From the NCBI GenBank assembly GCA_964460615.1, contig CAYWPX010000002.1, positions 71,220 through 135,219 on the forward strand: a stretch of DNA of 64,000 nucleotides, in the 5' to 3' direction. The position numbers and the translations under genes were made by a program. The stretch comes from an uncultured Planctomycetia bacterium (GTDB lineage Bacteria; Omnitrophota; Gorgyraeia; CAYWPX01). The notes beneath the pieces were generated by a model. It saw only the letters and a program-made list of their open reading frames with translations. It made no database searches and was not told the origin of the DNA. Shown piece after piece: positions 40,035 to 60,571 of the stretch; position 1 is the first letter of the stretch, and each line of letters opens with the position of its first letter.

Positions 40035-40689
40035 TCTCTACTATCCTTTGAATATGATCCTGAGTATCTGACATCTTTTCCATCACCTTAACAAGTTTTA
40101 TTCTCTTTGGATTTAATTTTTGAAGCTTTAGATATCCGGCCCTCACCTTTTTATGGAAATCCAAACCCTTCCTTTCCATGCGGTCGTGTTCACCTTTGAT
40201 CCGCGACCTTTTTAACCCTTCTTCAGCATCAATATCGAGAAGTATCGTAAGGTCGGGCTTAAAGCCTTTTAAATACGATTTTTCTATTTTTTTTATAAGA
40301 TCTAAGCTTATTTTGCCGGCCAAAGACTGGTAGACGTGGGTCGCATCATTAAATCTGTCAGAAATAACAATAAATTTTTTCTTGAGTGCCGGCTTAATGA
40401 TCTCATCTACTATCTGGGCCCTGGCGGCTTCAAAGAGAAATAACTCACTAAAATCTGCCATTCCTTTATTTCCAGGATCGAGAAGGATCTCTCTTATCTT
40501 CTTGCCGATATATGTCCCGCCGGGTTCATATGTATGCAAAACATGATACCCCTCTTCTTCCAAAAACTCTGTCAGAAGTTTAGACTGCGTTGATTTCCCG
40601 CAGCCTTCAGGCCCTTCAAAAGTAATAAACAGGCCTTTTTTTAAAGTTTTTTTCTCCATTTTATTTCCTTCGAAGCTCGCTAGTTCCAT
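40015..40689 (-). CDS. tmk: thymidylate kinase
   Basis: GLFITFEGPEGCGKSTQSKLL P-loop and DRF-like region. 224 aa. Confidence 0.85.
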   Translation of the reverse strand: MELASFEGNKMEKKTLKKGLFITFEGPEGCGKSTQSKLLTEFLEEEGYHVLHTYEPGGTYIGKKIREILLDPGNKGMADFSELFLFEAARAQIVDEIIKPALKKKFIVISDRFNDATHVYQSLAGKISLDLIKKIEKSYLKGFKPDLTILLDIDAEEGLKRSRIKGEHDRMERKGLDFHKKVRAGYLKLQKLNPKRIKLVKVMEKMSDTQDHIQRIVENVIQRY

Positions 40690-42139
40690 CTTTCTTGTCT
40701 AACACTATATATCCTTTATTATCCAATTCTTTTCTTATAATATCGGCTTCTTGATATCTTTTCTCTTTCTTTAATGCTTCCCTCTCAACTTTTTTTTCTT
40801 CGGCCCATTTTTGTAGTTTTTCATAATCAACAATAACTTCTTTGTAACCACTATCAGTGTCCCACCTTGAAAAATCTTTATCAGGGCTGATTGAATCCGG
40901 AGCTAATCCAAATACATTTGTCATTTTAAGAAAAAGGTTTGCGGCATAATTAAGCTTAGATGCATTGATATTTTTAGTGTCATTAACCAATAATGAATAA
41001 CAATACGATTTCATTTTCTCTAAAACGCCTAAGGCTTTTGGAGTGTTAAAATTATCATCCATTGCCTCTTCAAAATCTAATTTATAATTATCTATTTCTT
41101 TCTTAATTTCACTTTCAAGATCCATGGGTTTATTTTCCCATAAAGATTTATATGAAAATAAATAAATAAAACTTTTGTAACGCTTTTTCTCTTCTTCCAT
41201 TATTTGAATAGAATAATCTATGGGATTAGAATAATGCGTTTGAAGAAAAAATATTTTTAAAACATCGGGATGGAATTTTTCTAAAATCTTCTTTATCGTT
41301 ATAAAATTCCCCAGAGACTTGGCCATCTTCTCTTTATTAATCGTTAATAGGCCGTTATGTATCCAGTATCTTGCGAATTTTTTCCCCGCACCCTCAGACT
41401 GTGCGACTTCATTTTCATGATGAGGGAAAATAAGGTCTATCCCGCCGCCGTGAATATCAAACTCATCTCCAAGTAGATCAGAACTCATGCATGAACACTC
41501 TATATGCCAGCCGGGCCTACCTTTACCCCACGGGCTATCCCAGGATGGTTCATTCTCTTTTGCGCTCTTCCACAACGCAAAATCCATGGGCTCTAACTTA
41601 TTCTCTCCCGGATGAACTCTCGCCCCGCTTTCCATAGCATCGAGGCTTTGATTAGACAGTTTACCGTAATTTTTTGCTTTCTTTATGTCAAAATAGACAT
41701 CTCCTTTAGATTCATAAGCAGCCCCGCGCTCAATCAGGTTCTCAATGAACTTTATCATCCTAAGAATATATTCTGTAGCCTTTGGCTCATCTGTTGGCCT
41801 CTGAATCCCTAATGAGTCCATATCCTTATGATAAGAATCGAGGTATTTCTCGGCGACTTTTTTAAACGAGCTATTCAGGTCTTCCCCCGGAAATTCTTTT
41901 TTTGCCTTATCAATGATCTTATCGTCAACATCGGTGACATTTCTTACAAATTTAACATTATAACCTTTATAACTAAGATAGCGTCTGATAACATCAAATA
42001 TATAGGCGGATCTTGCGTGCCCTATATGAGGCTCATCATAGACAGTAGGGCCGCAGACATACATTTTAATATTCGGATTATCTATCGGCGTAAAAATATC
42101 CTTGGAACGAGTGAGGGAATTATATATCTTTATCGGCAT
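40661..42139 (-). CDS. cysS: cysteinyl-tRNA synthetase
   Basis: MYVCGPTVYDEPHIGHARS (HIGH), KMAKSLGN (KMSKS). 492 aa. Confidence 0.9.
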   Translation of the reverse strand: MPIKIYNSLTRSKDIFTPIDNPNIKMYVCGPTVYDEPHIGHARSAYIFDVIRRYLSYKGYNVKFVRNVTDVDDKIIDKAKKEFPGEDLNSSFKKVAEKYLDSYHKDMDSLGIQRPTDEPKATEYILRMIKFIENLIERGAAYESKGDVYFDIKKAKNYGKLSNQSLDAMESGARVHPGENKLEPMDFALWKSAKENEPSWDSPWGKGRPGWHIECSCMSSDLLGDEFDIHGGGIDLIFPHHENEVAQSEGAGKKFARYWIHNGLLTINKEKMAKSLGNFITIKKILEKFHPDVLKIFFLQTHYSNPIDYSIQIMEEEKKRYKSFIYLFSYKSLWENKPMDLESEIKKEIDNYKLDFEEAMDDNFNTPKALGVLEKMKSYCYSLLVNDTKNINASKLNYAANLFLKMTNVFGLAPDSISPDKDFSRWDTDSGYKEVIVDYEKLQKWAEEKKVEREALKKEKRYQEADIIRKELDNKGYIVLDKKDGTSELRRK

Positions 42140-42145
42140 GTGAAT

Positions 42146-42838
42146 TTATTTCTTTTCGAGCTTATTGAGCCTGCCCTCTAATTCTTCGATGATCTGCATC
42201 ACAGGGTCAAGCACATGAATATGATTGAGGCTTATGTCCAGTTTTTTCCCATCCTGTTTTGTAATCCTCCCGGGAACGCCAACTACGGTAGAATTGTGAG
42301 GAACATTTTTTAACACAACTGCATTTGCTCCTATATATGAATTATTGCCAATGGTGATATTTCCGAGAATTTTTGCGCCTGCGCCTATTACGACATTATT
42401 TCCGATATTCGGATGTCGCTTGCCTTTTTCTAACCCCGTCCCACCAAGAGTCACCTCCTGATACAAAAGCACATCATCGCCTATAACTGACGTCTCACCT
42501 ATAACTACACCCATCCCGTGATCGATAAAAAATCTTTTTCCTATTGTTGCCCCGGGGTGAATTTCAATTCCTGTAAAAAATCTTCCGAGTTGGGAAAGAA
42601 ACCTCGGGAAAAAAGGAATTTTTAGTTTCCAGAGAAAATTAGCCATCCTGTGATAGATAAGTGCATGAAGCCCGGAATATGTAAGGATTATCTCTACGGA
42701 GCTCTTTGCAGCAGGGTCCCTTTTAAAGATAGTCTTTATCTCTTCATTAAAAACTATCCTTATTATAAGAAACTTGATAAGGCCTATCAGAATAAGTACA
42801 GCTAGTATCATTAAGAATATTTCCATGATTGTCTCCAA
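42146..42838 (-). CDS. cysE: serine O-acetyltransferase
   Basis: Left-handed beta-helix hexapeptide repeats [34 protein letters not shown]. The start codon is uncertain (TTG in the track, or the internal ATG of MEIF...). Confidence 0.8.
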
Positions 42839-42924
42839 AACCCAATGTTACAGGTTACAGATCACATGCCACAGTTATTAGATCTTAATGCAACCTATGA
42901 CTTGCGGCTTGTAACATTTTTAAT

Positions 42925-43392
42925 TTATTCTAAAAGTGCCACAGCGTAGCTGGCTATTCCCTCGGCCCTTCCAATTGACCCGAGCCGCTCAGCAGTCGTG
43001 GCTTTTATATTTATTTTTTCTGTTTCGATATTTAATGCATTTGCAATGTTTGAGATCATCTTATCTTTAAAGGGCTCGATTTTTGGTTCCTGAGCCAGCA
43101 CTACACAATCGATATTGCTTATTTTAAATTTTCTGTCAAGAAGCATCTTATTCACTTCTTTAAGAAGCTCCAAACTTGAGATATCCTTATAAGTAATATC
43201 ATTATTTGGAAAATGCTTGCCGATATCATTCAGCCCCGCCGCCCCTAAAAGCGAGTCGCATATAGCATGGACCAAAGCGTCTGCATCCGAATGCCCTTCC
43301 AGCCCCTTAATGTAGGGTATCTCTACTCCACCGAGTATAAGCTTTCTACCCTCAACAAAAGCGTGTATGTCATAACCCATTCCGACCCGCAT
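42925..43392 (-). CDS. ispF: 2-C-methyl-D-erythritol 2,4-cyclodiphosphate synthase
   Basis: MRVGMGYDIHAF...GHSDADALVHAICDSLLGA. 155 aa. Confidence 0.9.
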   Translation of the reverse strand: MRVGMGYDIHAFVEGRKLILGGVEIPYIKGLEGHSDADALVHAICDSLLGAAGLNDIGKHFPNNDITYKDISSLELLKEVNKMLLDRKFKISNIDCVVLAQEPKIEPFKDKMISNIANALNIETEKINIKATTAERLGSIGRAEGIASYAVALLE

Positions 43393-43426
43393 CGCCTAAC
43401 CTCTCCTCACCCCGAAATTCAAATAT

Positions 43427-44146
43427 CTAATTTCTGATGATCTTAGATCTCAGGATAGCTTCACCCATCACAACATCTTCAGGGGTAGTTATTTTGATAT
43501 TCTCCCATGAGCCTTCGACTATTTTCACTCTCTTGCCCAAATTTTCAACGCATGAAGCATCATCTGTAAAAATTTTCTTTGATACTGAGGCTTTGCTATA
43601 CGCCTTTAGGATCAACCCGGCCTGAAAACTCTGGGGGGTCTGTGCATCCCATAAGAATTTCCTATCCGGCGTTTCGATAACATTTAGATTTTTATCAACT
43701 TTTTTAATAGTATTTTTAGTCTTAACCGCTACACACGAAGCCCCGAACTTTTTAGCCGCTTCAATCGACCTGGCTAAGATATCTTTCTTAAGAAATGGCC
43801 TGGCTGAATCATGGATTACTATTATGCCGACTTTTTTGCTATTTATCATTTTAAGGGCGTTATAGACAGAGTCAAACCGCTCTTTGCCCCCGCTGACTAA
43901 CCTGGTTTTTTTGAACCCAAATCTCTTTAGTATATTTATTGTACAATACTTAACATCATCTTTATGCACAGCGCAGATTATTTCATTAATTAAGGGTGAT
44001 TTTTCAAACACGCTGAGAGTATAATAAAGCATCGGTTTACCGCAAAGCTTGATATATGGCTTTCTTATTTTAGAATAAAGCCTTTTACCCATCCCTCCGG
44101 CGGGAATTATTGCGCAAATTTTTAAAGAACTGTTTTTTTTAACCAT
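43427..44146 (-). CDS. ispD: 2-C-methyl-D-erythritol 4-phosphate cytidylyltransferase
   Basis: ICAIIPAGGMGKRL...VLIHDSARPF-like motif (VIHDSARPFL). Confidence 0.85.
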   Translation of the reverse strand: MVKKNSSLKICAIIPAGGMGKRLYSKIRKPYIKLCGKPMLYYTLSVFEKSPLINEIICAVHKDDVKYCTINILKRFGFKKTRLVSGGKERFDSVYNALKMINSKKVGIIVIHDSARPFLKKDILARSIEAAKKFGASCVAVKTKNTIKKVDKNLNVIETPDRKFLWDAQTPQSFQAGLILKAYSKASVSKKIFTDDASCVENLGKRVKIVEGSWENIKITTPEDVVMGEAILRSKIIRN

Positions 44147-44190
44147 TATTGTTTTAATATTTAGTTATTTGTAATTTATTTTTAGCTTTT

Positions 44191-44222
44191 CCCATGAGCT
44201 TAGAGCCATGAGCCAAGAGCTA
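44191..44222 (-). repeat. ATGAGC-heptad array (family B copy 3): cccatgag|cttagag|ccatgag|ccaagag
   Basis: Read in the yacL-ispD spacer. Confidence 0.5.
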
Positions 44223-45248
44223 TTTTTTCCTTCCCTGTCCTTCCTCAAGTTTTGCAAATATCATCCTGCCGGCTGATGTCTGGAGAACACTGGTCACTAA
44301 AACCTTTAGATTCTGTCCAATAAGATGTCTTGAATTATCCACCACTACCATTGTTCCGTCATCAAGATACGCAACTCCCTGGTTATACTCTTTGCCTTCT
44401 TTTGTAATCCTTACTTCCATAAGCTCGCCCGGAAGTACCACCGGCTTAAGCGCATTGGCTAAATCATTTATATTTAAAACCGGCACTTTCTGAAGCTCGG
44501 CTATTTTATTAAGGTTGTAATCGTTTGTTAATACCTTAGCTCCCAGAAATTCCGCCAGCTTTATTATCTTGGCGTCAACATCTGTTATATCCGGAAAGTC
44601 TTCCTCGTGTATCTTTACATCCATCTTTGTGCTTTTCTGGATCTTATTTAATATATCCAATCCGCGTCTTCCGCGGTTTCTCTTGAGGGTATCCTGGGAA
44701 TCCGCTATCTGCTGAAGCTCCCTAAGGACAAACCTGGGGATTATCAATCTTCCTTCAATAAATTTTGTTTCGAAGATATCGGCTATTCTCCCATCTATGA
44801 TCACGGATGTATCCAGAATAATTATGTCTTCTTTCTGGTCCTGCCTGGCAAATTTTACATAGGGGATTATTATATTAAATTCATCCTTACCGCGCATTGA
44901 GATCACCATGCCTAAATAACAAAAAACCGTTATAAAAACTATCTGAAGCGACGCATACATCTTTGCATCCATCGGAATAAGCCTGAGAATTATAGAAAGA
45001 AGCCATGCCATGAAAAACCCGAACACTAAGCCAAACAAAGCCGCAGAAAGGTTTCGTATGGATGCGCGCCTTAATACAACTTCTAATAAAATTATGCCCA
45101 GCCCCGCTACAAAACCAAAAGCGCTACCGGCGATCGCCCATTCAAATGAAAAATTCCCGAATAAAGACCCGATATAATAACCGACTATCGTACTTACAAG
45201 CGCAAAAAATATTCTTAAAAATATTAGTGTCATACGCCAGCTCCTCAA
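44220..45248 (-). CDS. yacL: PIN and TRAM domain membrane protein (YacL-like)
   Basis: N-terminal TM helices, then [14 protein letters not shown] (PIN) and a C-terminal TRAM-like [24 protein letters not shown]. Confidence 0.7.
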
Positions 45249-45297
45249 GTTTCTAGTTAATTATTAGTTCGTTATATTATGTAATTTCGCCCTAAGC

Positions 45298-46677
45298 CTA
45301 ACCTATTGCCAATGCTATGGCCTTTTCGATGGTATCAATATGTATAATTTCAAAGTCACCCTTGACCGACCCGCCCACGGGAAGAGAATTATTTTTTGGT
45401 ACAAAAATCCTTTTAAAACCCAGCTTGGATACCTCTTTTATCCTGGAATTAATATTATTAACCGACCTGATTTCTCCTCCAAGCCCAAGCTCACCGATAA
45501 ATGCATCTTTAGCATTAATTGCCTTATTCTTAAAGCTTGAGCTAAGCGCCATGGCGACCGCCAAGTCACTTGCCGGTTCACTAAGCCTTACACCGCCCGC
45601 AACATTGATAAAAATATCAAAACTTCCAAGATGAAACCCGCAACGTTTCTCTAAGATCGCTATAATAAGATTTAGCCTGTTGAGATCGAACCCGCTTGCC
45701 TGTCTTTTTGGGATATTGAATTTCGATTCAACCACAAGCGCCTGAACTTCTACACAAAGCGGCCTTGTCCCTTCCAGGCTTACTGTGGCAACCGATCCGC
45801 TCGTATTATTTGGACGCTCGAATAGGAAAACTTTTGAAGGGTCCTTTAGTTCATTTAAGCCGTTTTCAGCCATTTCAAAAATCCCTATCTCATTGGTAGA
45901 GCCAAAACGGTTTTTGGTTGACCTGAGAATCCTTAAACTTGATTGGGACTCCCCTTCAAAATATAACACAGTATCAACCATATGCTCTAGAACCCTCGGG
46001 CCTGCAAGAAGGCCTTCCTTTGTCACATGCCCTATAAGAAACACGGCTGCATCAAGCTTCTTTGCCAGATATATAAGTTCAGCCGCACACTCTCTTATCT
46101 GGCTTACTGAACCGGCGCTCGTTGTAAGCTCATTTTTATAAATAACCTGGATAGAATCTATTATAATAGCTTTTGGCTTAAGTTTGCTTATATATTGTAC
46201 CACCAGCTCAAGGCTCGTTTCGCTTGCCATAAATAAATTGTCATGAAAATTACCGAGTCTTTTTGCACGCAATTTTGTCTGGCTTATGGATTCTTCGCCT
46301 GAAATATAAAGAACTGTTTCCGATTTTGACAAAGAATTTGAAACCTGAAGCATCAGCGTTGACTTACCTATACCAGGGTCTCCGCCTACCAGAACCACCG
46401 ACCCTCTTACCAATCCTCCGCCGAGGACCCTGTCAAATTCATTAATGCTTGTTACGATCCTTGGTATTGCAAGCTCACTTATATCCTTAAATTGTTTAGG
46501 CCCGAGATCAAGCGCTTTATCATCGAATTTAAAAATCTGCCTTTTATTTGTAAGCTCAGGTGTCTCAAGTTCTTCAAGAAAAGAATTCCACTTTTCGCAC
46601 TCAGGGCACCTGCCTTGCCATTTGGGCGATTTATAACCGCAATCCTGGCATATAAAAATATTTTTTGTCTTTGTCAT
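45298..46677 (-). CDS. radA: DNA repair protein RadA/Sms
   Basis: CQDCGYKSPKWQGRCPEC zinc finger, GDPGIGKSTL Walker A, KNRFG motif and a Lon-like C-terminus. Confidence 0.9.
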   Translation of the reverse strand: MTKTKNIFICQDCGYKSPKWQGRCPECEKWNSFLEELETPELTNKRQIFKFDDKALDLGPKQFKDISELAIPRIVTSINEFDRVLGGGLVRGSVVLVGGDPGIGKSTLMLQVSNSLSKSETVLYISGEESISQTKLRAKRLGNFHDNLFMASETSLELVVQYISKLKPKAIIIDSIQVIYKNELTTSAGSVSQIRECAAELIYLAKKLDAAVFLIGHVTKEGLLAGPRVLEHMVDTVLYFEGESQSSLRILRSTKNRFGSTNEIGIFEMAENGLNELKDPSKVFLFERPNNTSGSVATVSLEGTRPLCVEVQALVVESKFNIPKRQASGFDLNRLNLIIAILEKRCGFHLGSFDIFINVAGGVRLSEPASDLAVAMALSSSFKNKAINAKDAFIGELGLGGEIRSVNNINSRIKEVSKLGFKRIFVPKNNSLPVGGSVKGDFEIIHIDTIEKAIALAIG

Positions 46678-51001: not shown

Positions 51002-53419
51002 CTATTCAAAAACCAATTTACTATCTTTAACAGTAGCTTTTACAACCTGATTTTCTTTAAACTTACCGCTTATTATCTCTTCTGCAAGAGGGTCTTCGAT
51101 ATACCTCTGAATTGTCCTTTTAAGCGGCCTGGCTCCGAAAACAACGTCGAAACCTTTTTCTATCAGGAATTCTTTTGCTTCGATGGTCATTTCGAGCTCA
51201 ATATTTTGTTCTTTAAGCCTACCCATGACTTCATCAAGCTCTATATCAACTATTTTCAAAAGGTCTTCTTTCTCCAAAGGCTTAAAAACAATGATATCGT
51301 CAATTCTGTTCAAAAATTCCGGCTTAAAGGTCTTTTTGATCTCTTCAAGGATCCTTGTTTTCATATCCTGATAGGTGACATCCGATTTGGCCTGCACAAA
51401 CCCTAATGATCCTTGTTTTCTGAGCATCTCTGCGCCGATATTGGATGTCATCAGAATGATAGTATTCTTAAAATCAACTTTTCTCCCGAATGAGTCTGTA
51501 AGGCGTCCTTCTTCGAATACCTGCAATAAGATATTAAAAACATCGGGGTGCGCCTTTTCAATCTCATCAAGTATAATTACCGAATAAGGCCTGCGCCTTA
51601 CTTTTTCAGTGAGCTGTCCGCCCTCTTCATACCCGACATATCCCGGAGGAGCTCCGACAAGCCTTGAAACATTGAACTTTTCCATGTATTCAGACATATC
51701 TATCTGAATGACTGCATTCTCATCGCCGAACATATATTCGGCAAGGACTTTGCCCAAAAGCGTTTTTCCTACACCCGTCGGCCCCAAAAATATAAATGAA
51801 CCAATGGGCCTTTTTGGGTCTTTTATCCCGGAACGCGATCGCCTGACAGCATGTGCAATAGCGCTTATCGCCTCTTTCTGCCCAACAACCTTCTTCGTGA
51901 GGCCTTCCTCCATCTTAAGGAATTTTTCAGTCTCTTTTTCTTCCAACCTCAGAAGAGGGATACCTGTGATCTTGGAAACAATAGTAGCTATGTCATCGGC
52001 AGTTACTTTTGGATAAGACTCTGCTTTGGACTCTTTCCAGTCTTTCTTAATCTTTTCAAGTTTCTCTTTAGCTTTTCTTTCTTTATCCCTAAAAGTCGCG
52101 GCCTTTTCAAAATCCTGGCCTTTAACGGCGGATTCCTTCTCTTTTTTGAACTCTTTTATCTCATCCTCAACTTTTTTTAGATCCGGCGGGGCAACCATAG
52201 TATTAAGCCTTGCCCTTGAACCTGCTTCGTCTATTAGGTCTATTGCCTTATCCGGCAAAAACCTGCCGCTGATGTACCTGTCGGAAAGTTTTGCCGCAGC
52301 CTCTACCGCTTCATCGAGAAACTTCACCCTGTGATGAGCCTCGTATTTATCCCTTAAGCCTTTTAATATCTCAACTGTTTCCAAGACGCTCGGCGGCTCG
52401 ACCATGATCGTCTGGAATCTTCTTTCCAAAGCAGCGTCTTTTTCAATATGCTTTCTGTATTCATCAAGTGTTGTCGCGCCTATACATTGTATTTCGCCTC
52501 TTGAAAGAGCCGGCTTTAGGATATTTGAAGCATCTATCGCCCCTTCAGCCCCGCCTGCTCCTACGAGAGTATGGAGCTCATCAATAAATACAATGATATT
52601 CTCGGAACGCTTTATCTCGTCCATTACAGTCTTTATTCTTTCTTCAAACTGTCCTCTGTATTTTGTCCCTGCGACCATCAAAGCAAGATCAAGCACTATC
52701 ACTCTTTTATCTTTAAGGACTTCGGGAATATCTCCCACTACTATTTTCTGCGCCAGGCCTTCAACGATCGCGGTCTTTCCTACGCCGGCCTCGCCTAAAA
52801 GTACGGGATTATTTTTTGTCCGCCTTGAAAGGATTTGGATAACTCTTTCGATCTCATTTTTTCTGTTCACTACCGGGTCAAGCTTATCCTGCCTTGCTAA
52901 AGCTGTCAGGTCCCTTCCGAATGCATCGAGTGCCGGAGTCTTTGCCTTCTGTTGTTTTGGTGGAGCGCCGAAACCCGGTGTAGCCGATCCGAGTAACTGC
53001 ATAACTTCATTTCTTACTTTATCGAGGTCCAGGCCAAGATTTATCAAAACCTGCGCAGCAACACCCTCGCCTTCGCGTATAAGCCCAAGAAGGATATGCT
53101 CAGTGCCGATATAATTATGCCCCATGGATTCCGCTTCATCCATGGCCAGTTCAATAGCCTTCTTGGCTTTAGGATTAAAAGGAATATCGCCTGAAACAAC
53201 TGTAGTGGGCCCGGGTTGAACGACTTTTTCTATTTCCATCCTTATTTTTTCAGGGTCTAATCCGACTCCGACCAAAACCGCAGCAGCAACACCTTCGCCC
53301 TCTCGTATAAGCCCAAGAAGGATATGCTCAGTCCCGATATAATCATGATTAAACCTTTTGGCTTCCTCTTTTGCCAATAATATTACTTTACGAGCTCGCT
53401 CTGTAAATCTATTGAACAT
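51002..53419 (-). CDS. clpC: ATP-dependent Clp protease ATP-binding subunit ClpC
   Basis: Duplicated Clp_N repeat (YIGTEHILLGLIREGEGVAA x2), two AAA+ modules (GEAGVGKTAIVEGLA; GPTGVGKTLLGKVLA) and a UVR-like coiled coil between them. Confidence 0.9.
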   Translation of the reverse strand: MFNRFTERARKVILLAKEEAKRFNHDYIGTEHILLGLIREGEGVAAAVLVGVGLDPEKIRMEIEKVVQPGPTTVVSGDIPFNPKAKKAIELAMDEAESMGHNYIGTEHILLGLIREGEGVAAQVLINLGLDLDKVRNEVMQLLGSATPGFGAPPKQQKAKTPALDAFGRDLTALARQDKLDPVVNRKNEIERVIQILSRRTKNNPVLLGEAGVGKTAIVEGLAQKIVVGDIPEVLKDKRVIVLDLALMVAGTKYRGQFEERIKTVMDEIKRSENIIVFIDELHTLVGAGGAEGAIDASNILKPALSRGEIQCIGATTLDEYRKHIEKDAALERRFQTIMVEPPSVLETVEILKGLRDKYEAHHRVKFLDEAVEAAAKLSDRYISGRFLPDKAIDLIDEAGSRARLNTMVAPPDLKKVEDEIKEFKKEKESAVKGQDFEKAATFRDKERKAKEKLEKIKKDWKESKAESYPKVTADDIATIVSKITGIPLLRLEEKETEKFLKMEEGLTKKVVGQKEAISAIAHAVRRSRSGIKDPKRPIGSFIFLGPTGVGKTLLGKVLAEYMFGDENAVIQIDMSEYMEKFNVSRLVGAPPGYVGYEEGGQLTEKVRRRPYSVIILDEIEKAHPDVFNILLQVFEEGRLTDSFGRKVDFKNTIILMTSNIGAEMLRKQGSLGFVQAKSDVTYQDMKTRILEEIKKTFKPEFLNRIDDIIVFKPLEKEDLLKIVDIELDEVMGRLKEQNIELEMTIEAKEFLIEKGFDVVFGARPLKRTIQRYIEDPLAEEIISGKFKENQVVKATVKDSKLVFE

Positions 53420-53514
53420 TTATTGCCTCCGTGTAATTCAGATGACAGAAGTCAGAAAACAGAAATCAGATTTTTTTCTGTCTTCTGACCTCTTTTTTCT
53501 ATTTTCTTTCTTTA
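53420..53514 (-). promoter_or_regulatory. 5' spacer of clpC carrying a CAGAA-phase heptamer array and hairpin (gtcagaaaacag...ctgtcttctgac), related in words to the ilvC-leuA spacer
   Basis: cagatga|cagaagt|cagaaaa|cagaaat|cagattt then ttttctgtcttctgac. It shares gatgacagaag with 22294-22408. Confidence 0.45.
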
Positions 53515-54561
53515 TTATTTCAATTTTTCTCTTATTAGATCAGATCTTTTAACATCCCTCTCTACAGAGGATAATATCTTTCCTTCCAATTTCTGCAGAT
53601 GAGCAGGCTGAGAAAGTATTAAAATCTCATTTATCATTTTAAGGTCGATATTTTTCGTAAGCTCCATATCAACCCCCAATTTCACATCCGATAACAATCT
53701 TACGGCCTCTTCGCTCGTTATGATCCTGGCGCTTTTTAAAGTGCCATACGCACGAAAGATCCTATCAGAGATAAGTTCCCGGCTTTTTGTAAAAAGTATA
53801 TCCCTTGCACTTTTTTCCCTGACGATTATCTGTTTCACTATCTTTTCAAGATTATCTATTACATCGCTTTCAGGCCTTCCCAAGGTTGACTGGTTCGACA
53901 TCTGAAAAAAGTTACCGACTGCTTCGGTCCCTTCGCCATAAAACCCTCTTACTGCAAAATTTAATTTTGCGAGAGCCTGGAAGATCTTTCCTATCTGATT
54001 AGTCATCACCAGAGCCGGCAGATGCATCATTACTGATGCTCTCATACCGGTACCGGTATTGGTAGGACATGCCGTCAGATACCCGAACTTGGAAGAAAAA
54101 GCGATGTTTAATTGAGAAGAAATTTCTGTATCTATCTTATCGATTATCTTCATTGAGTCGGACAGATTAAGCCCTGACTGCATAGCTTGCAGCCTCAGGT
54201 GGTCCTCTTCATTTATCATCAAAGATATTGTTTCGCGGTCGTCGATTAAAAGTGCCTTGCCGTCACCTTTTACGGCATGCTCTCTGGAAATCAAATGCCG
54301 TTCTACTAAGAATATCCTGTCAAGGTCACTTAGATTATTCATGTACAAAAAAAGTGAATTTTTCGGAAAAGAAGATTTTTCTACGGCCTTCTTGACCGCA
54401 TCCAAAATCTCTTCGAGTTTCTTCTTAGAGGCCCAGTTCGGAAAAGGCAACTTGTCCAGATTGCGTGCCAGCCTGACCCTTGAAGACAGCACTATATCCA
54501 CATTAGGGCCGGTCCCCTTGAGCCATTCTCCTGTTGAATAAAGCAATTCATCCAGTTTCAT
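53515..54561 (-). CDS. mcsB: protein arginine kinase McsB (ATP:guanido phosphotransferase)
   Basis: TACPTNTGTGMRASVMMHLPAL is the phosphagen-kinase active-site signature. 348 aa. Confidence 0.85.
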   Translation of the reverse strand: MKLDELLYSTGEWLKGTGPNVDIVLSSRVRLARNLDKLPFPNWASKKKLEEILDAVKKAVEKSSFPKNSLFLYMNNLSDLDRIFLVERHLISREHAVKGDGKALLIDDRETISLMINEEDHLRLQAMQSGLNLSDSMKIIDKIDTEISSQLNIAFSSKFGYLTACPTNTGTGMRASVMMHLPALVMTNQIGKIFQALAKLNFAVRGFYGEGTEAVGNFFQMSNQSTLGRPESDVIDNLEKIVKQIIVREKSARDILFTKSRELISDRIFRAYGTLKSARIITSEEAVRLLSDVKLGVDMELTKNIDLKMINEILILSQPAHLQKLEGKILSSVERDVKRSDLIREKLK

Positions 54562-54572
54562 TATCAGATATC

Positions 54573-55061
54573 CTATTTTTTCTCAAGCTCTTTTATCAGA
54601 TCGCGCAGTTTTGCCGCCTCTTCAAATTCTTCTTTCTCAATCGCCACTCTAAGCTTTTTCTTCAACTCCTCGATATCCAGTTCTGACTTGACTGTTTTTG
54701 GTAGCATCGCCGGCACCTTTCCTAAATGTTGGCTTGATCCGTGTATTCTTTTTAACAAAGGGTCCAGATTTTTCTTGAAGGATGTATAACATTCACTGCA
54801 TCCGAGCCTGCCTGTCTTTTTAAAATCTCTGTAAGTCATGTTGCAATTTTTGCATTTTATTGCAAGCTCTTCTCCTTTTTCTATCTGCGTCCCAAAATCC
54901 GCTAAACCTGCCAGCAAATCCGCCAGCCCGAAGTGGTCTTCCATCTCCGAGCCCTTCTTAATTGCGCACTCCTCACAAAGATGCAGCTTCGTGATCTGAT
55001 CATTTATTATTTCGGTCAGATGTACCGTTGCTTCATTTTTACCGCAAATATTGCACAGCAT
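54573..55061 (-). CDS. mcsA: McsA-like protein with zinc fingers and a UVR motif
   Basis: CNICGKNEATVHLTEI...CEEC, a second CKNC...CSEC, and C-terminal EEFEEAAKLRDLIKELE (UVR). Confidence 0.75.
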   Translation of the reverse strand: MLCNICGKNEATVHLTEIINDQITKLHLCEECAIKKGSEMEDHFGLADLLAGLADFGTQIEKGEELAIKCKNCNMTYRDFKKTGRLGCSECYTSFKKNLDPLLKRIHGSSQHLGKVPAMLPKTVKSELDIEELKKKLRVAIEKEEFEEAAKLRDLIKELEKK

Positions 55062-55088
55062 AATTACTACCCCTTTTTAGCCCATCAA

Positions 55089-55113
55089 CTATGAGCTATG
55101 AACCATGAGCTGA
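55089..55113 (-). repeat. ATGAGC-heptad array (family B copy 4) upstream of mcsA: ctatgag|ctatgaa|ccatgag|ctga
   Basis: Read 25-45 nt upstream of the mcsA start, where a CtsR-type operator would sit in Firmicutes. Confidence 0.5.
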
Positions 55114-55116
55114 TAA

Positions 55117-55758
55117 TTATTTATTATTAAGCTTTTTTGATCTCAGATCGCTTGTAAGCTCGTCTATCTCCTGCAGTTGTTCAGTCAGTTTTTCAATATT
55201 TACATTATCTTTTTTAAGGTCCGACATGACTAAGCTTATTTTATCTTTTACCTGATCGATAACCCTCAGGTCCTGATACATCTTATCGCGAAGCGAATGG
55301 ACCATATGATTGAATGCCCCCGCCATCTCTTTAAGCTGATCTTTTTTTCTTATCTGGACCGTCTGAAGCTCGTTATCGACTCCAACGAGATTGATAAATT
55401 TTGTCAACCTAAAAAGAGGGCCTGCTATCCTATGAGATGAATATATCCCGACAAAGAGCAATAGTATACCCATAAATAGCGCCGCCAAGATGATTTTTAT
55501 AACAAATGAATTCTCTATTGATTTTATATATTCTTTTGATAAGGCATTGTCGCCGACCATTCTATAGAAAAGCTCTAAATACTCCTTATTTAGGTACCAA
55601 AGCGCAAACCCAAATATCAATGTTATCAGAGTAACATGCAAAATCAACTGGCCGCTATAAGCAAGCTGGAGCGGCTTATTTACCAGATATTGCGTACGTT
55701 TATAATTTTTTTTCGCCATCTTTCCCTCCGATTTTTGTAAAAACAAGCGATTAAGCAA
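55117..55758 (-). CDS. membrane protein with HAMP domain
   Basis: Two TM helices flank a periplasmic segment, then IAGPLFRLTKFINLVG...LKEMAGAFNHMVHSL (HAMP-like) and a coiled coil. Confidence 0.5.
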   Translation of the reverse strand: MLNRLFLQKSEGKMAKKNYKRTQYLVNKPLQLAYSGQLILHVTLITLIFGFALWYLNKEYLELFYRMVGDNALSKEYIKSIENSFVIKIILAALFMGILLLFVGIYSSHRIAGPLFRLTKFINLVGVDNELQTVQIRKKDQLKEMAGAFNHMVHSLRDKMYQDLRVIDQVKDKISLVMSDLKKDNVNIEKLTEQLQEIDELTSDLRSKKLNNK

Positions 55759-55832
55759 TTATGCTATTATGCGATTAGGTATTTTTTACCTAATTACCCA
55801 ATCACATAATCGCCCAATCGCTGATTTTTTAC
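55759..55832 (-). terminator. long imperfect nested palindrome (GCGATTA-type 8-mers x4, inner 8-bp hairpin attaggta-ttttt-tacctaat, inverse arm), followed on the transcript strand by UGUUUUUAC; candidate ilvE terminator
   Basis: The plus strand reads gcgattaa|gcaattat|gctattat|gcgattag gtatttttt acctaatt ... taatcgcccaatcgc. Confidence 0.35.
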
Positions 55833-56708
55833 TTAATACTTCACGCCTTCTTTTTTTGTAAGCTTTTTGAATTCCTGTATCAAGAACAATGTCTTCTCTC
55901 CGGGTTTTCCGCTGCCGATTATCCTGCCGTCAAGCTTGACCACCGGGATAACCTCTGCGGCAGTACCTGTAAGAAAACACTCATCTGCATTAAAAATATC
56001 GTGCCTCGATAACACCGCCTCTTTAAATGAAACTTCTTTTGTGGATTTAGCGATATCTATGACTGCATTTCTGGTTATTCCGCACAATGCGCCCATATAA
56101 GAAGGAGGTGTAGTAAGTGCGCCATTTTTAATGATAAAAATATTATCACCCGAGCACTCTACGACATATCCTGCGTTATTCAGCATAATACATTCTTCGC
56201 AACCCGCTTTAACAGCTTCAATCTTTGCCATGATATTATTTAGATAATTAAGAGATTTTATCTGAGGATTAAGCGCCTCCGGGATATTGCGCCTTGTGGC
56301 GACAGTCACCAATTCCAAGCCTTCTTTATATAATTTTTCAGGATAGAGAGTGATCTTATCCGTTATGATAATTATTGTGGCTTTAGAACATTTTCTCGGA
56401 TCGAGCCCAAGGTCCCCTTTGCCTCTCGTAACGACAAGTCTGATATAAGCGTCCGTGAGATTGTTTATTTTAAGCGTTGCAACAACAGCCTCGATCATCT
56501 CTTTTTTTGAAATAGGGATTTCAAGCATTATCGACCTGGCGGATTCATAAAGCCTATCTATATGCTCCTTAAGCTTAAAAACAAGGCTGTCGTATGACCT
56601 TATTCCCTCAAAAACACCGTCACCATAGAGAAGCCCGTGGTCAAATACAGATATCTTTGCATCATCCTTTTCATAATACTGCCCGTCGATATAAATTTTT
56701 AGTCCCAT
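55833..56708 (-). CDS. ilvE: branched-chain amino acid aminotransferase (class IV PLP enzyme)
   Basis: VFDHGLLYGDGVFEGIRSY...TRRNIPEALNPQIKSLNYLNNIMAKIEA...ECFLTGTAAEV. Confidence 0.85.
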   Translation of the reverse strand: MGLKIYIDGQYYEKDDAKISVFDHGLLYGDGVFEGIRSYDSLVFKLKEHIDRLYESARSIMLEIPISKKEMIEAVVATLKINNLTDAYIRLVVTRGKGDLGLDPRKCSKATIIIITDKITLYPEKLYKEGLELVTVATRRNIPEALNPQIKSLNYLNNIMAKIEAVKAGCEECIMLNNAGYVVECSGDNIFIIKNGALTTPPSYMGALCGITRNAVIDIAKSTKEVSFKEAVLSRHDIFNADECFLTGTAAEVIPVVKLDGRIIGSGKPGEKTLFLIQEFKKLTKKEGVKY

Positions 56709-56825: not shown

Positions 56826-57518
56826 CTATATCAATACTCCGTCTTTTATATTCAGAATCCTGTCAGAAACCTTTGATAGATCTTTATTATGAGTCACTAT
56901 TATGAAAGTCGTTCTATCAATTTTATTTATCTCTTTTAATAGGCCAAATACCTCTTCACTGGTCTTAGAATCAAGATTTCCGGTCGGCTCATCACAAAAA
57001 ACAATATCCGGCTTATTCAATAATGCCCTTGCTATGGCTACCCTCTGTTGTTCTCCACCGGAAAGTTCTTTTGGCCTGTGCGTTAATCTTTTTTCGAGAC
57101 CTACAAGTTTCAAGGCCTTATGCGCATCTATCCTGCAATCTTTTAAAGAGCTCTGAAAATTTTTATTAATGAGCCGCGTTATCATAACGTTCTCTAATGC
57201 GTTTAGTTCGTTCAGGAGATGGTAGAACTGAAACACAAAACCCATCCTCTTATTACGTAATGCACTTTTGGCCTTATCAGAGAGATGTTTTAGATTTTTT
57301 CCGTCAAATAAAACCATACCGCTCGTCGGCTCATCGATCCCGCCTAGTATATGGAGAAGAGTCGACTTACCGGCTCCTGACGGGCCTACTATAGAAACAA
57401 ACTCTCCGGTCTTAATTTCAAGGTCTATATCTTTGATGACATGAAGGGATTTTTTCCCTTCAAAAAATTTTTTGTTAAGTCCTTTAGCGATTATTATACT
57501 ATTCATATCTAAGGGCAT
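56826..57518 (-). CDS. lolD: ABC transporter ATP-binding protein, LolD-like
   Basis: GPSGAGKSTLLHILGG, LSGGEQQRVAIARAL, VFCDEPTGNLD. Paired with an FtsX-like permease. Confidence 0.8.
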   Translation of the reverse strand: MPLDMNSIIIAKGLNKKFFEGKKSLHVIKDIDLEIKTGEFVSIVGPSGAGKSTLLHILGGIDEPTSGMVLFDGKNLKHLSDKAKSALRNKRMGFVFQFYHLLNELNALENVMITRLINKNFQSSLKDCRIDAHKALKLVGLEKRLTHRPKELSGGEQQRVAIARALLNKPDIVFCDEPTGNLDSKTSEEVFGLLKEINKIDRTTFIIVTHNKDLSKVSDRILNIKDGVLI

Positions 57519-58680
57519 CGGTTATGTTTAAACTTGCAGCTTTATATGCCGGATAAATAGTCGCTAAAAAAGTAATAACTATACTCGAAATCGCTATCGC
57601 CAGTACATCGGACTGGATAATAAGAACCGGTATCTTATCAATATAATAAATATCTTTCGGTATATCTACAAACTGGTATTTTTTAAGGACATTGGCCAAT
57701 AATATCCCCAGACCTACCCCGAGCCCAGTGCCCCCCAATCCTATCAATGTCCCGTTTAAGGCAAATATTGCCATTATGCTTCTTTTGGTAGCGCCGATAG
57801 CCCTTAATATCCCTATGTCTTTCGTCTTTTCCATCACTGTCATAATAAGCGATGTAGCAATATTTAGGGCAGCAACAATAACTATGAGGGTCAGTATAAC
57901 AAACATCGTAAGCTTCTCCAGCTTTAGAGCGCTGAAAAAACTCTTATTTGATTCCATCCACGTCCTGATCGTATAGTCATAACCAAGTATGGCTGCAATG
58001 TTATTTTTGACTTCTTCGGGGCTGAACCTGTCTTTTATCTTTATCTCAAACCCTCCGACAAGATCCCCGAGATTTAGTATACGCCTGGCATCCGGTATAT
58101 TGATAAAAACAATATTTGCATCGTAGTCATACATACCTGAATTAAAAAAAGCGGCTATTTTAAAGTCATAACTCTTATTTGTAACCGGAGAAACCAGCGA
58201 TATTGTACTGGATATATTCGCCCCGAATTTTTTCGCCAGCTCCGAACCCATGATAACTTCGCCCTCGGAAAGCCTGAATTCACCCTTGGTTATATATTTT
58301 TTTAGCGATGTGGTGTTCTTCTCAACGTCGATATCTATCCCCCTTATTATTACCCCGGCAGTCTTGGCATTATTCACCAAAAGTGCCTGTGCATTCACAA
58401 AAGGGGCAACGCTTTCAATTCCATTTACCCTAACCAGTTCTTCTGATAACGAAACATAGTCAGAGATCCCGGCCTCTTTCTCTACCAATATCTCGGAATT
58501 GAACCCGATTATTTTTTCCTTGAGCTCATTATCAAATCCGCTCATAACCGCAAGTACTACTATGAGTGCTGCGACTCCGATTGTTATGCCGGCTACGGAG
58601 ATCAGGCTTATAACAGAGATCAATGCATGCTTTTTTTTAGCAGTCAAAAATTTAAAGCTTAGAAATAATTCCCAGATCAT
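57499..58680 (-). CDS. lolC: lipoprotein-releasing system permease LolC/E-like (FtsX family)
   Basis: N-terminal TM, a large periplasmic MacB-like domain and three C-terminal TM helices (FtsX). Confidence 0.8.
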   Translation of the reverse strand: MIWELFLSFKFLTAKKKHALISVISLISVAGITIGVAALIVVLAVMSGFDNELKEKIIGFNSEILVEKEAGISDYVSLSEELVRVNGIESVAPFVNAQALLVNNAKTAGVIIRGIDIDVEKNTTSLKKYITKGEFRLSEGEVIMGSELAKKFGANISSTISLVSPVTNKSYDFKIAAFFNSGMYDYDANIVFINIPDARRILNLGDLVGGFEIKIKDRFSPEEVKNNIAAILGYDYTIRTWMESNKSFFSALKLEKLTMFVILTLIVIVAALNIATSLIMTVMEKTKDIGILRAIGATKRSIMAIFALNGTLIGLGGTGLGVGLGILLANVLKKYQFVDIPKDIYYIDKIPVLIIQSDVLAIAISSIVITFLATIYPAYKAASLNITDALRYE

Positions 58681-58700
58681 AATTTGGTTAATGGTTGTTA

Positions 58701-59148
58701 GTGAATTGTGAATAGTTAAAAAATAAATTGTTACAATAATTTAATTAAAGTCATGGTCATTCTATTTATCTTTTCAATCTTTTCCAATAACTCGCTTAAT
58801 TTCTGATTTGCTAAATAATTTAACTTGTTAGATATTATTAATTGCGTTTCAAGTTCGGCGCTACTTGACAAAGTAATAAATAGAAATTGCTTGAATTCTT
58901 TGTTATGGTGCCTCATAAATCCTTCTGCAATATTCGAAGGCACCGAAATACTAGATCGTCTTATTTGATTAACTAACCCATAAAGCTCGTGACTTGGAAA
59001 TTCTTTTGTAATTTTATATATTTCTTCAACTAACTCTATGCCTTCCTGCCAAATCCTTAAGTTCTTGAAATTCTTTATTTTTTTTCCATTCACTATTCAC
59101 GTTTTTTGGTTTTATTACAATTCACCAACTACTATTCACTATTCACGG
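58701..59148 (-). mobile_element. candidate small cassette: four-helix-bundle IVS-family gene bracketed by inverted GTGAAT-heptamer repeats
   Basis: Left end, plus strand: gtgaattgtgaatagtt (about 58701-58717). Right end, minus strand: gtgaattgtaat, gtgaatagtgaatgg (overlapping the GTG start) and gtgaatagtgaatag (last codons of lysS). Confidence 0.3.
58731..59093 (-). CDS. four-helix-bundle protein of the 23S rRNA intervening-sequence (IVS) protein family (Avd-like fold)
   Basis: NLRIWQEGIELVEEIYKITKEFPSHELYGLVNQIRRSSISVPSNIAEGF matches the IVS-protein signature (W-Q-x-A..L....Y..FP..E.Y.L..Q.RR...S...NIAEG). The apparent start is GTG. Confidence 0.75.
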   Translation of the reverse strand: MNGKKIKNFKNLRIWQEGIELVEEIYKITKEFPSHELYGLVNQIRRSSISVPSNIAEGFMRHHNKEFKQFLFITLSSSAELETQLIISNKLNYLANQKLSELLEKIEKINRMTMTLIKLL

Positions 59149-60571
59149 TTTTTAGTTGAGGAAATAAGATAACATCTCTTATTGAATCTGCACCGGTAAA
59201 AACCATGGCAATTCTGTCAATACCTATGCCAAGCCCGCCCGCAGGGGGCATGCCGTATTCAAGTGCTCTTACAAAATCCATATCAATTCTCTCTTTTTTG
59301 CCCTGGACTTCGGCTAAGAACCTTTCATACTGCTCAATTGGGTCATTGAGTTCTGAATAGGCATTTGCCACTTCAATACCGCCTATAAAAAGCTCGAATC
59401 TTTCAGAAATTTTCGGATTGCCGGGCTTATTTTTAGCTAAAGGGCAGAGCTCGCTGAACATCTCTGTCACAAAAACCGGATGCGCTTCGGCCTTCGGTTC
59501 AATCAGTTCGGCTATGATATTTAATAGCTGGGTCTTGCTGAGATCTTTTCCTTCTACCTCGACGCCATGGCTTTTCAGTTTCGGTATCCACTCTTTTACA
59601 TCGTCATCGGGTAAAATCCCGAATGTATCTTTCATAAGATCGGTAAAAGAGACCTTCTTAAAAACCGAAAAATCAACGGTCTTACCCATGAATTCAAACT
59701 GAAGTTTCCCAAAAATCTCTTTAGCTGTATTTGTCAAAAGCTCTTCGGTGAGACGGATCATCTCGTCGCAGTCTGCATAAGCGGTATAGACCTCTAACAT
59801 TGTAAATTCAGGATTGTGCCTGATAGAGATCCCTTCGTTTCTGAAGGATCTGTTTAATTCGTAGACCCTTTCAAAACCGCCTACCAGAAGCTTTTTCAAA
59901 TATAGCTCTGGAGCTATCCTTAAAAAAAGGTCCATATCCAAAGCCTCATGATGAGTAATAAAAGGCTTTCCGGCAGCTCCTCCGGCTATGGGGTGCATCA
60001 TTGGGGTCTCTACCTCCATGTAACCCTTGGAATCCAGATATCCCCTTATACTTTTAATTATCCTGCTCCTGTCATAGAAAGCCTTTTTCACATTATCATT
60101 CACTATCAAGTCTACATACCTCTGACGGTATCTCGTCTCAACATCTTTAAGGCCGTGCCATTTTTCAGGTAAAGGCCTAAGGCTTTTTGAAAGGATCGTA
60201 AAGTTATTAACCTTGATTGTAAGTTCACCGGTCCTGGTCTTAAATATTTCTCCTTTAACGCCGATAATATCGCCTATATCAAGCTTGCTTACCAAATCAT
60301 ACTGTTCAGAGCCTACAATATCCTCTTTAAAATAAAGCTGCAACTTGCCGGTCTCATCCCTTAGATCCATAAAAGTACTTTTGCCGTGATTCCGCATAGC
60401 CATAATACGGCCTGCGGCTACGGATGGCTTCCCTTCAGAGTATGTATCTACCAGCTCTTTTACCTGATTATGGTCAAAACGCCTGCCATAAGGCTCTATA
60501 TTTCTGGCTTTTATGGCCTCAAGCTTATTAAGGCGCTCCCTTATTAATTCGTTGGAATCCTGTATTTCCAT
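59132..60571 (-). CDS. lysS: lysyl-tRNA synthetase (class II)
   Basis: N-terminal OB anticodon-binding domain, class II motifs FRNEGIS..HNPEFTMLE and GGLGIGIDRIAM. Confidence 0.9.
   Translation of the reverse strand: MEIQDSNELIRERLNKLEAIKARNIEPYGRRFDHNQVKELVDTYSEGKPSVAAGRIMAMRNHGKSTFMDLRDETGKLQLYFKEDIVGSEQYDLVSKLDIGDIIGVKGEIFKTRTGELTIKVNNFTILSKSLRPLPEKWHGLKDVETRYRQRYVDLIVNDNVKKAFYDRSRIIKSIRGYLDSKGYMEVETPMMHPIAGGAAGKPFITHHEALDMDLFLRIAPELYLKKLLVGGFERVYELNRSFRNEGISIRHNPEFTMLEVYTAYADCDEMIRLTEELLTNTAKEIFGKLQFEFMGKTVDFSVFKKVSFTDLMKDTFGILPDDDVKEWIPKLKSHGVEVEGKDLSKTQLLNIIAELIEPKAEAHPVFVTEMFSELCPLAKNKPGNPKISERFELFIGGIEVANAYSELNDPIEQYERFLAEVQGKKERIDMDFVRALEYGMPPAGGLGIGIDRIAMVFTGADSIRDVILFPQLKTVNSE

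Follow-up and report, generated by a model that had tools for sequence, protein, structure and literature searches.

Considered as a whole, the family, structural and comparative genomic data presented here make it highly probable that the genes mcsA, mcsB and clpC of a Candidatus Omnitrophota metagenome-assembled genome (MAG) encode a bona fide McsA-McsB-ClpC phospho-arginine (pArg) quality-control module, and that this module has been inherited vertically in a very old block of genes (lysS...mcsA-mcsB-clpC-radA-yacL-ispD-ispF-cysE-cysS). The three genes lie as intact, back-to-back open reading frames (ORFs) on the minus strand within positions 51002-55116 of the 64-kb stretch of DNA that we examined (the window); the interval ends at 55116 because the 55-bp spacer 5' of mcsA is counted in. 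The gap between mcsA and mcsB is 11 bp and that between mcsB and clpC 95 bp, and as part of a long and tight same-strand string the mcs genes are probably co-transcribed with their neighbours. The original prediction had named a Firmicute-style arginine-phosphorylation module without ctsR in a diderm bacterium, and its gene identities, including the CPTNTGTG signature of McsB, were confirmed by family, Protein Data Bank (PDB) and motif matches.

The McsB, McsA and ClpC proteins

The kinase gene mcsB (53515..54561, minus strand) encodes a protein arginine kinase of 348 aa that matches PF00217 (E 1e-66) and the NCBIfam family NF002194 'protein arginine kinase' with 443.9 bits, passing the cutoff of 385. 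Its residues 11-348 align with the solved Geobacillus McsB (PDB 6fh1, E 9e-94). In our McsB alignment the CPTNTGTG signature (residues 165-172, with the catalytic Cys165) and the NEEDH motif (residues 117-121) are invariant, and the roles in McsB of NEEDH and of the CPTN(V/T)GTG cysteine motif have been described (PMC11046695). Likewise invariant are the pArg receptor residues S283, R335, D336 and R339; in B. subtilis McsB the receptor site lies in the C-terminal dimerisation domain and is formed by Ser285, Arg337, Asp338 and Arg341 (PMC8370763), and this domain (PF27454, McsB_C) is annotated on a protein identical to the window McsB. Having the ATP:guanido phosphotransferase catalytic domain in common with the phosphagen kinases, the mcsB product could be read as a small-molecule (arginine) kinase rather than a protein kinase, a reading to which we give next to no credence. 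Its phosphagen-kinase-type catalytic domain comes without the N-terminal domain of those enzymes, the alignment to McsB runs end to end and takes in PF27454 and the pArg receptor residues, free-arginine kinases were reached in the PDB search only at about E 1e-26 as against 9e-94 for McsB, and the domain that McsB is missing is provided by its partner McsA (PMC11046695).

The activator gene mcsA (54573..55061, minus strand, 162 aa) lies directly upstream of mcsB. Its product matches NCBIfam NF053706 with E 2.7e-50, and its residues 1-161 align with B. subtilis McsA (PDB 8wtb_B, E 7e-33), so that homology is clear. Four CxxC motifs (residues 3, 29, 70 and 88) provide the cysteines of two zinc domains, four in each, and match Z1 and Z2 of 8wtb_B in the alignment, the zinc domains described for McsA (PMC11046695), and a UVR coiled coil (PF02151) occupies the C-terminal residues 130-162.

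The third gene, clpC (51002..53419, minus strand), encodes a class I AAA+ unfoldase of 805 aa with an N-terminal double Clp_N repeat, two AAA+ modules and a short M-domain with a UVR motif (Pfam: Clp_N twice, AAA, AAA_lid_9, AAA_2 and ClpB_D2-small). The match to B. subtilis ClpC (PDB 3j3s, 1096 bits, residues 1-803) runs end to end, and in the PDB ranking the ClpC entries come first, with ClpB, ClpA and ClpE below them. Residues T6, E31 and E107 align with T7, E32 and E106, the residues of the two pArg pockets in the N-domain of B. subtilis and S. aureus ClpC (PMC12583610). The Walker A motifs are GEAGVGKT at 209 and GPTGVGKT at 546, the Walker B motifs DELH at 280 and DEIE at 618, and the M-domain phenylalanine F437 stands in FEKAA at 437. 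An LGF loop at 672 takes the place of the VGF loop of B. subtilis, and we take this (V/L)GF loop to be the site at which ClpC docks ClpP.

By homology to these characterized proteins, zinc-bound McsA would activate McsB, and McsB would in turn mark damaged or regulatory proteins by phosphorylating their arginine residues. In the ClpC N-domain the mark would then be bound by the two pArg pockets, a binding that would also activate ClpC allosterically, and ClpC would presumably unfold the substrate into ClpP. This peptidase would be encoded outside the window, among whose annotated ORFs we found no clpP.

Distribution, gene order and CtsR

Scanning one genome per GTDB species for two McsB motifs gave at least 593 confirmed McsB loci, and we compared the best 80 of these as ranked by an Omnitrophota-centred profile. 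The 80 loci come mainly from Omnitrophota, Planctomycetota (the anammox genera Kuenenia, Jettenia and Scalindua, together with Gemmataceae, Isosphaeraceae and Pirellulales) and Verrucomicrobiota (Chthoniobacterales, Udaeobacter and Spartobacteria-labelled MAGs), joined by Aerophobetes, Binatia and three Bacillota-type loci. The closest relatives of the window McsB, at ~58-80% identity, belong in their great majority to Candidatus Omnitrophota MAGs and in many cases are already named 'protein arginine kinase', and hundreds of Omnitrophota McsB proteins stand at about 60%; identity is 47-56% to Planctomycetota and Verrucomicrobiota and 46-48% to Bacillota. Moreover, mcsA precedes mcsB in nearly all of the best 80 loci with flanking sequence, and clpC directly follows mcsB in the Omnitrophota, Verrucomicrobiota and anammox loci, many other Planctomycetota having mcsAB without an adjacent clpC. 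Given that McsB and McsA are this widespread in Omnitrophota, Planctomycetota and Verrucomicrobiota, the module cannot be called unusual or 'Firmicute-style', as the original prediction had it. Four Isosphaeraceae and Gemmataceae loci (L051, L053, L066 and L079 in our numbering) have a tandem pair of mcsA-like genes 5' of mcsB.

A neighbour-joining (NJ) tree of 82 McsB sequences groups by phylum, with the Bacillota as a clade of their own and the window McsB within Omnitrophota, sister to the protein of an Omnitrophota MAG. The record titles of several loci (L003, L006, L007, L010-L014, L034, L068 and L077) look at odds with their content: MAGs labelled 'uncultured Planctomycetia/Planctomycetales', found among L003, L006, L007 and L010-L014, cluster with Omnitrophota by McsB and synteny, and in the McsB tree L034 and L077, labelled Bifidobacteriaceae/Bifidobacterium, fall with Verrucomicrobiota and L068, labelled Chitinophagaceae, with Planctomycetota.

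In the direction of transcription the window reads lnt - lysS - small intervening-sequence-protein (IVP)-like ORF - lolC - lolD - ilvE - HAMP - mcsA - mcsB - clpC, continues with U602 - mlaE - mlaF - mlaD - radA - PIN/TRAM - ispD - ispF - cysE - cysS, and from there runs on to tmk - holB - PSP1 - metG - tatD. Family matches and synteny identify lysS, the small 23S-rRNA-IVP-like ORF, lolC and lolD (56826..60571, minus strand) as the upstream part of the conserved block, followed by the branched-chain aminotransferase gene ilvE (55833..56708, minus strand; NF006185, 471.9 bits), by synteny the upstream neighbour that mcsA keeps across Omnitrophota and Verrucomicrobiota. The downstream backbone of radA, PIN-TRAM (yacL-like), ispD, ispF, cysE and cysS (40661..46677, minus strand, family matches) is separated from clpC in the window by U602 and mlaE/F/D (46677-50958). 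A core of lysS-lolCD-ilvE-mcsAB-clpC-mlaEFD-radA-PIN-ispDF recurs throughout the Omnitrophota loci, of which L005 reads clpC-radA-PIN-ispD-ispF-cysE with no mla genes in between; Verrucomicrobiota share lolD-ilvE-mcsAB-clpC(-mlaEF), and the anammox loci L035 and L036 have mcsAB-clpC-radA. Among the Bacillota-type loci, L056 reads ctsR-mcsA-mcsB-clpC-radA and L075 ctsR-mcsA-mcsB-clpC-radA-ispD-ispF. We take the B. subtilis order to be lysS ... ctsR-mcsA-mcsB-clpC-radA-disA-yacL-ispD-ispF-gltX-cysE-cysS, and its origin-proximal order presumably also resembles the cysS-tmk-holB-PSP1(yaaT)-metG-tatD string of the window (35356-46677, 59132-60571); a literature search for the B. subtilis order of clpC, radA, disA, yacL and ispD found no paper. 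With a gene order partly common to Bacillota, the module belongs to an old housekeeping backbone and is not an island, and the diderm-specific genes lolCD and mlaEFD are interleaved in this backbone.

U602 (49150-50958, 602 aa), which separates clpC from mlaE, matched neither Pfam nor NCBIfam families. Some Omnitrophota (L002, L014 and L016, and L085 with 484 aa) have in its position a gene that is unannotated or of weak similarity (22%), and U602 may work with the Mla system as a so far uncharacterised partner. The small ORF lies in the 451-bp gap between lysS and lolC (58681-59131), and its 120-aa counterpart in L082 matches PF05635, the 23S rRNA-intervening-sequence (four-helix-bundle) protein.

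The phylum-wise grouping of McsB, combined with a conserved backbone that is partly shared with Bacillota, argues for old vertical inheritance and not for recent transfer. The original prediction had pointed to a possible horizontal transfer. In a recent transfer, a Firmicute mcsA-mcsB-clpC cassette would have entered this diderm and shed ctsR in the process. Such an event would fit the literature, which describes the system as Gram-positive (PMC11046695) and suggests a horizontal acquisition of mcsAB for Chlamydia (PMC10128030), and it would also fit the observation that the window McsB is about as close to Bacillota as to Planctomycetota and Verrucomicrobiota. We nevertheless hold it to be highly improbable, considering that the phylogeny nests the window McsB inside Omnitrophota, that lolD-ilvE upstream and mlaEF or radA-PIN-ispDF downstream are kept across Omnitrophota and Verrucomicrobiota, that G+C over the module (0.37-0.42) is the same as in the remaining window, and that no mobile-element genes flank it among the window ORFs and their family matches; Chlamydia, moreover, provides a precedent in a diderm (PMC10128030).

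We searched for CtsR by tblastn with two proteins from Bacillota loci that had been verified with Pfam PF05848 and PF17727. The window gave no match even at E <= 10, and among the best 80 loci CtsR was found solely in L054, L056 and L075, directly upstream of mcsA in each; the other 77 loci, all non-Bacillota, had no CtsR match within up to 8 kb per side. For the CtsR box we assumed the consensus (A/G)GTCAAANAN(A/G)GTCAAA. At <=1 mismatch the window holds no such box, and its single 2-mismatch match is coding, with 0.47 expected by chance; as a positive control, boxes at <=1 mismatch were found solely in L054 and L056, just upstream of ctsR. In most relatives the gap between ilvE and mcsA is -1 to 27 bp, so that the two genes abut or overlap and therefore leave no space for a regulator gene. 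The absence of ctsR upstream of mcsA, as originally described, is borne out by these searches, and a ctsR homolog with canonical boxes, named at the time as the finding that would speak against it, was found in the window neither by tblastn nor by the box scan. Among the loci examined, those outside Bacillota are as a rule without CtsR. A ctsR-less mcsA-mcsB-clpC is the inherited norm across the Planctomycetes-Verrucomicrobia group, and the window module is therefore an ordinary, uncharacterised member of a known system. With no CtsR to act on, the role of the kinase would most simply be protein quality control, and McsB would probably be a post-translational degradation labeller and not the switch of a CtsR regulon. 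A literature search linking McsB with Planctomycetes, Verrucomicrobia or Omnitrophica returned no such paper among the matches listed.

Some points weigh against the reading of a vertically inherited pArg module. The 80 loci are a biased sample, since the profile that ranked them was centred on Omnitrophota; the NJ tree has no support values, and takes in four Bacillota sequences and no Chlamydiae; and the scope of what is said about ctsR, clpP, ywlE and hrcA is the 64-kb window. At the protein level, McsB scores 417.6 bits with the Bacillus-type model NF053707, under its 500-bit cutoff, and McsA scores 170.7 bits with NF053706, a model built for Bacillus-type McsA, under its cutoff of 210. 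An equivalent of B. subtilis R194, the residue that drives octamer formation (PMC8370763), is absent from the window McsB and also missing in Geobacillus, and oligomeric regulation may therefore differ. Finally, the activity of Gram-negative McsB homologues 'has never been identified' (PMC11046695).

The host is a Candidatus Omnitrophota MAG with an outer membrane, as follows from the lipopolysaccharide (LPS), Lol, Lnt and Mla genes that family matches identify in the window: waaA (11766-13061), lpxK (10687-11730), lnt (60755-62305), lolC/lolD (56826-58680, minus strand), mlaD/F/E (46677-49130, minus strand), several heptosyltransferase genes and an LpxL-like acyltransferase gene. This is the diderm setting that the original prediction had described. 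The minus strand carries all 55 non-nested ORFs of >=150 aa in positions 1-64000, an unusually long co-oriented run, and GC skew is negative in each 2-kb bin. Three genes of the window are fusions, namely of a GT4 glycosyltransferase and a GT9 heptosyltransferase (6555-8711), of an LpxL-like lipid A acyltransferase and an ELM1-like domain (8793-10736), and of a TatD nuclease and a radical SAM domain (35356-36735).

The HAMP gene and the spacer repeats

Immediately upstream of mcsA lies, as first noted from the sequence, a gene for a HAMP membrane protein (55117..55719, minus strand; 200 aa from an ATG with a good ribosome-binding site). Hydropathy places two transmembrane (TM) segments at ~22-44 (TM1) and ~70-93 (TM2), followed by a HAMP domain from ~95 and a C-terminal coiled coil of ~55 residues. 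PF00672 matches the window protein alone with E 4e-4 (21 bits, under the 25-bit cutoff) and is matched in 17 of 20 orthologues (best E 2.2e-7). The HAMP domain is followed by no output domain (kinase, methyl-accepting chemotaxis protein (MCP) signalling, cyclase) and no further Pfam domain, and a HAMP-family profile found no match in the PDB. The name 'methyl-accepting chemotaxis protein' that relatives carry is unsupported. Orthologues of 49-86% identity with readable flanks all lie between ilvE and mcsA (L082, L086-L090 and 15/15 metagenomic loci), and distant homologues of <=46% identity all lie elsewhere (65/65), in unrelated contexts. Loci with the gene are scattered in one Omnitrophota subclade; the sister lineages L002, L085, L004 and L015 lack it, as do all other Omnitrophota that we examined. 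The insertion of the HAMP gene between ilvE and mcsA is specific to this clade, and the original view that the gene stands there instead of ctsR does not hold, since most relatives have ilvE abutting mcsA and neither gene present.

The HAMP protein might serve at the membrane as a sensor or anchor, gating McsA/McsB or ClpC according to signals from the envelope. All orthologues of 49-86% identity occupy the same place, with the tightest gaps to mcsA at 14-28 bp, the HAMP region is highly conserved, and the C-terminal coiled coil could conceivably associate with its UVR counterparts in McsA or ClpC. We consider such a partnership unlikely, however, in that ilvE and lolD are equally 'linked' to mcsA with no obvious functional tie, which makes adjacency weak evidence; the gene is missing from sister lineages and other Omnitrophota examined, neither an output domain nor a relative in the PDB was found for it, and its distant homologues stand in unrelated contexts. 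Because the whole block is syntenic by descent, the adjacency of HAMP and mcsA is no sign of functional coupling, and we rejected it as proof of such; it reflects a single old insertion and probable co-transcription. We are similarly doubtful of a wider scenario in which the pArg/ClpC system would be ancestral to a block common to Bacillota and the Planctomycetes-Verrucomicrobia-Chlamydiae (PVC) group, CtsR a later arrival in Bacillota, and the HAMP protein a membrane-gating fourth operon member recruited in one Omnitrophota clade.

The 55-bp spacer between HAMP and mcsA contains an ATGAGCT-type heptad array (55087..55111; ~3.3-4 units, with period 7 by Tandem Repeats Finder (TRF)) that reads AGCTCAT GGTTCAT AGCTCAT AGTTGAT on the gene strand, lies 28-50 nt upstream of the mcsA start and has no significant fold (z -1.6). 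Arrays of the ATGAGCT unit are also found at 2577-2604, 13114-13134 and 44192-44220, which makes four in 64 kb as against none in shuffles; the other three precede a heptosyltransferase gene, waaA and ispD, and every one of the four lies 25-75 nt upstream of a start codon, in an orientation that varies between copies. Whatever their unit, period-7 arrays are more numerous in the window than expected (20 vs 2.7 in shuffles). They fill many of the spacers between cistrons, with a unit that is particular to each spacer, often as two inverted arms that fold into hairpins of 20-40 bp. They include 2576-2604, 8721-8780, 13111-13137, 22315-22411, 24228-24285 and 42845-42867, and further 44202-44223, 48293-48318, 53444-53473, 55087-55110 and 56778-56805. 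Similar arrays are seen in loci of other Omnitrophota, of planctomycetes and of Verrucomicrobiota (L009 7211-7413, L086 8168-8460, L094 4414-4700, L106 381-458, and L028, L023 and L065), but are subject to turnover among closely related genomes.

The original prediction had put the array in the operator position of the module, and it could accordingly be bound as an operator by some unknown stress regulator acting in place of CtsR. Its distance from the mcsA start, the four ATGAGCT sites where 0 are expected by chance, each 25-75 nt before a start codon, and an array of AGTTCGT/AGCTCGT/AGGTCGT units in the matching spacer of the distant relative L106 are in keeping with such a role, which we still regard as very unlikely. 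A heptosyltransferase gene, waaA and ispD do not make a proteostasis regulon, the orientation differs among copies, and about 20 heptad arrays with differing units sit in other spacers. The closest relative (L082, McsB 80% identical) has a 28-bp HAMP-mcsA spacer without an array, and most other relatives with the HAMP gene have array-free spacers of 14-31 bp; others have periodic inserts of a different kind. Moreover, the pattern fits the short tandemly repeated repetitive (STRR) sequences of cyanobacteria, whose function is unknown (PMC2670836). The array in the mcsA spacer is a lineage-specific insert and not an operator.

The 95-bp mcsB-clpC spacer holds a 19-bp hairpin of heptad-like units (53447..53493, minus strand), with the period-7 array at 53444-53473 in the same spacer. 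The hairpin folds with -31.1 kcal/mol (z -5.8, 0/200 shuffles fold as well), 8.7 kcal/mol better on the sense than on the antisense strand, and lies upstream of the clpC ribosome-binding site GGAGG with no U-tract after it. A second, long imperfect hairpin with 8-bp periodic arms, an inverted repeat, occupies the ilvE-HAMP spacer (55739..55829, minus strand; -40.3 kcal/mol, z -8.8). Around the mcs locus the sense strand is the more stable by 9-14 kcal/mol, and over 17 spacers the sign is mixed; a DNA-level search for inverted repeats recovered some of the hairpins only, because it does not count G-U pairs. Relatives bear unrelated structured inserts in the mcsB-clpC spacer. In L082 two copies of an unrelated element of ~60 nt that resembles repetitive extragenic palindromic (REP) sequences (aaaggtcct...tcaggat; 8770-8850 and 11070-11135) occupy the ilvE-HAMP and mcsB-clpC spacers, where the window has its hairpins, from which it follows that structured inserts at these sites are replaced and not conserved. 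The mcsB-clpC hairpin is one of many STRR-like heptad elements, and may modulate transcript stability or the mcsAB:clpC ratio. In heterocystous cyanobacteria STRR elements lie for example between hupS and hupL, and a part in transcript stability or translational coupling has been proposed for them (PMC2670836). Like these, the window arrays consist of tandem 7-bp units, lie in non-coding DNA that separates co-oriented genes and are prone to form hairpins; unlike them, they come from another phylum and their units vary by spacer.

Searches for other control elements were negative. A scan of 50800-59300 for sigma-70 promoters and intrinsic terminators gave 27 and 7 matches against 21.7 and 6.4 in shuffled sequence, which is not above expectation, and no convincing promoter in the 55-bp mcsA spacer; a search for CIRCE (controlling inverted repeat of chaperone expression, the HrcA operator) gave zero matches at <=3 mismatches, and an Rfam scan of the whole window gave no family that reached the gathering score. 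Elsewhere in the window, a 328-nt spacer (23402-23729) 5' of ilvC (22409-23401) has five hairpins (-110.8 kcal/mol, z -7.8) and two similar elements of ~85 nt with no Rfam match, one of which contains TTAGCACT...AGTGCTAA, which resembles CIRCE half-sites at the wrong spacing. This spacer could be an ilv leader or attenuator, or a REP-like element.

Known systems and significance

Similar to the ctsR-mcsA-mcsB-clpC operon of B. subtilis and Geobacillus, the window has the order mcsA-mcsB-clpC, and its three proteins align with theirs end to end and retain the motifs for catalysis, zinc binding, pArg binding and ClpP docking. The downstream backbone is also of the kind seen in Bacillota-type loci, two of the ctsR-carrying loci having clpC-radA and L075 continuing to ispD-ispF. 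However, the window differs from these systems in having neither a ctsR gene nor a CtsR box, in the lolCD genes upstream and U602 with mlaEFD between clpC and radA, and, compared with B. subtilis, in the missing R194 equivalent and the heptad hairpin between mcsB and clpC. A second point of comparison is Chlamydia trachomatis, likewise a Gram-negative PVC member with McsA and McsB orthologues and with no CtsR described (PMC10128030). Chlamydia has an mcsAB operon, its ClpCP degrades pArg-casein, and C. trachomatis ClpC needs an arginine-phosphorylated substrate in vitro (PMC10128030). Its mcsAB genes, however, are flanked by tRNA genes and stand apart from clpC (PMC10128030), whereas in the window the three genes are contiguous within a housekeeping block. 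The other Omnitrophota, Verrucomicrobiota and anammox loci resemble the window in gene order, flanks, lack of ctsR and a McsB of 47-80% identity, although most of them have neither the HAMP gene nor the heptad array.

The system itself, the Chlamydia case (PMC10128030), the existence of Gram-negative homologues (PMC11046695) and the automatic annotation of the Omnitrophota relatives were already known. What is added here is modest, namely that a CtsR-less module is kept across three PVC-group phyla in an ancient backbone partly shared with Bacillota, and that one clade has an extra HAMP gene at the operon position. Reviews and structural papers still call arginine phosphorylation a Gram-positive degradation mark, yet the full McsA/McsB/ClpC set is conserved in the LPS diderms Omnitrophota and Verrucomicrobiota and in many Planctomycetota, with no CtsR in any of their loci examined; in the window set all the motifs that we looked for are intact. 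The horizontal acquisition suggested for chlamydial mcsAB consequently deserves re-examination against a PVC-wide vertical scenario. These observations suggest that the core role of the kinase is probably protein quality control rather than the switching of CtsR, and the question of what McsB does where there is no CtsR could be addressed in culturable Planctomycetes and Verrucomicrobia.

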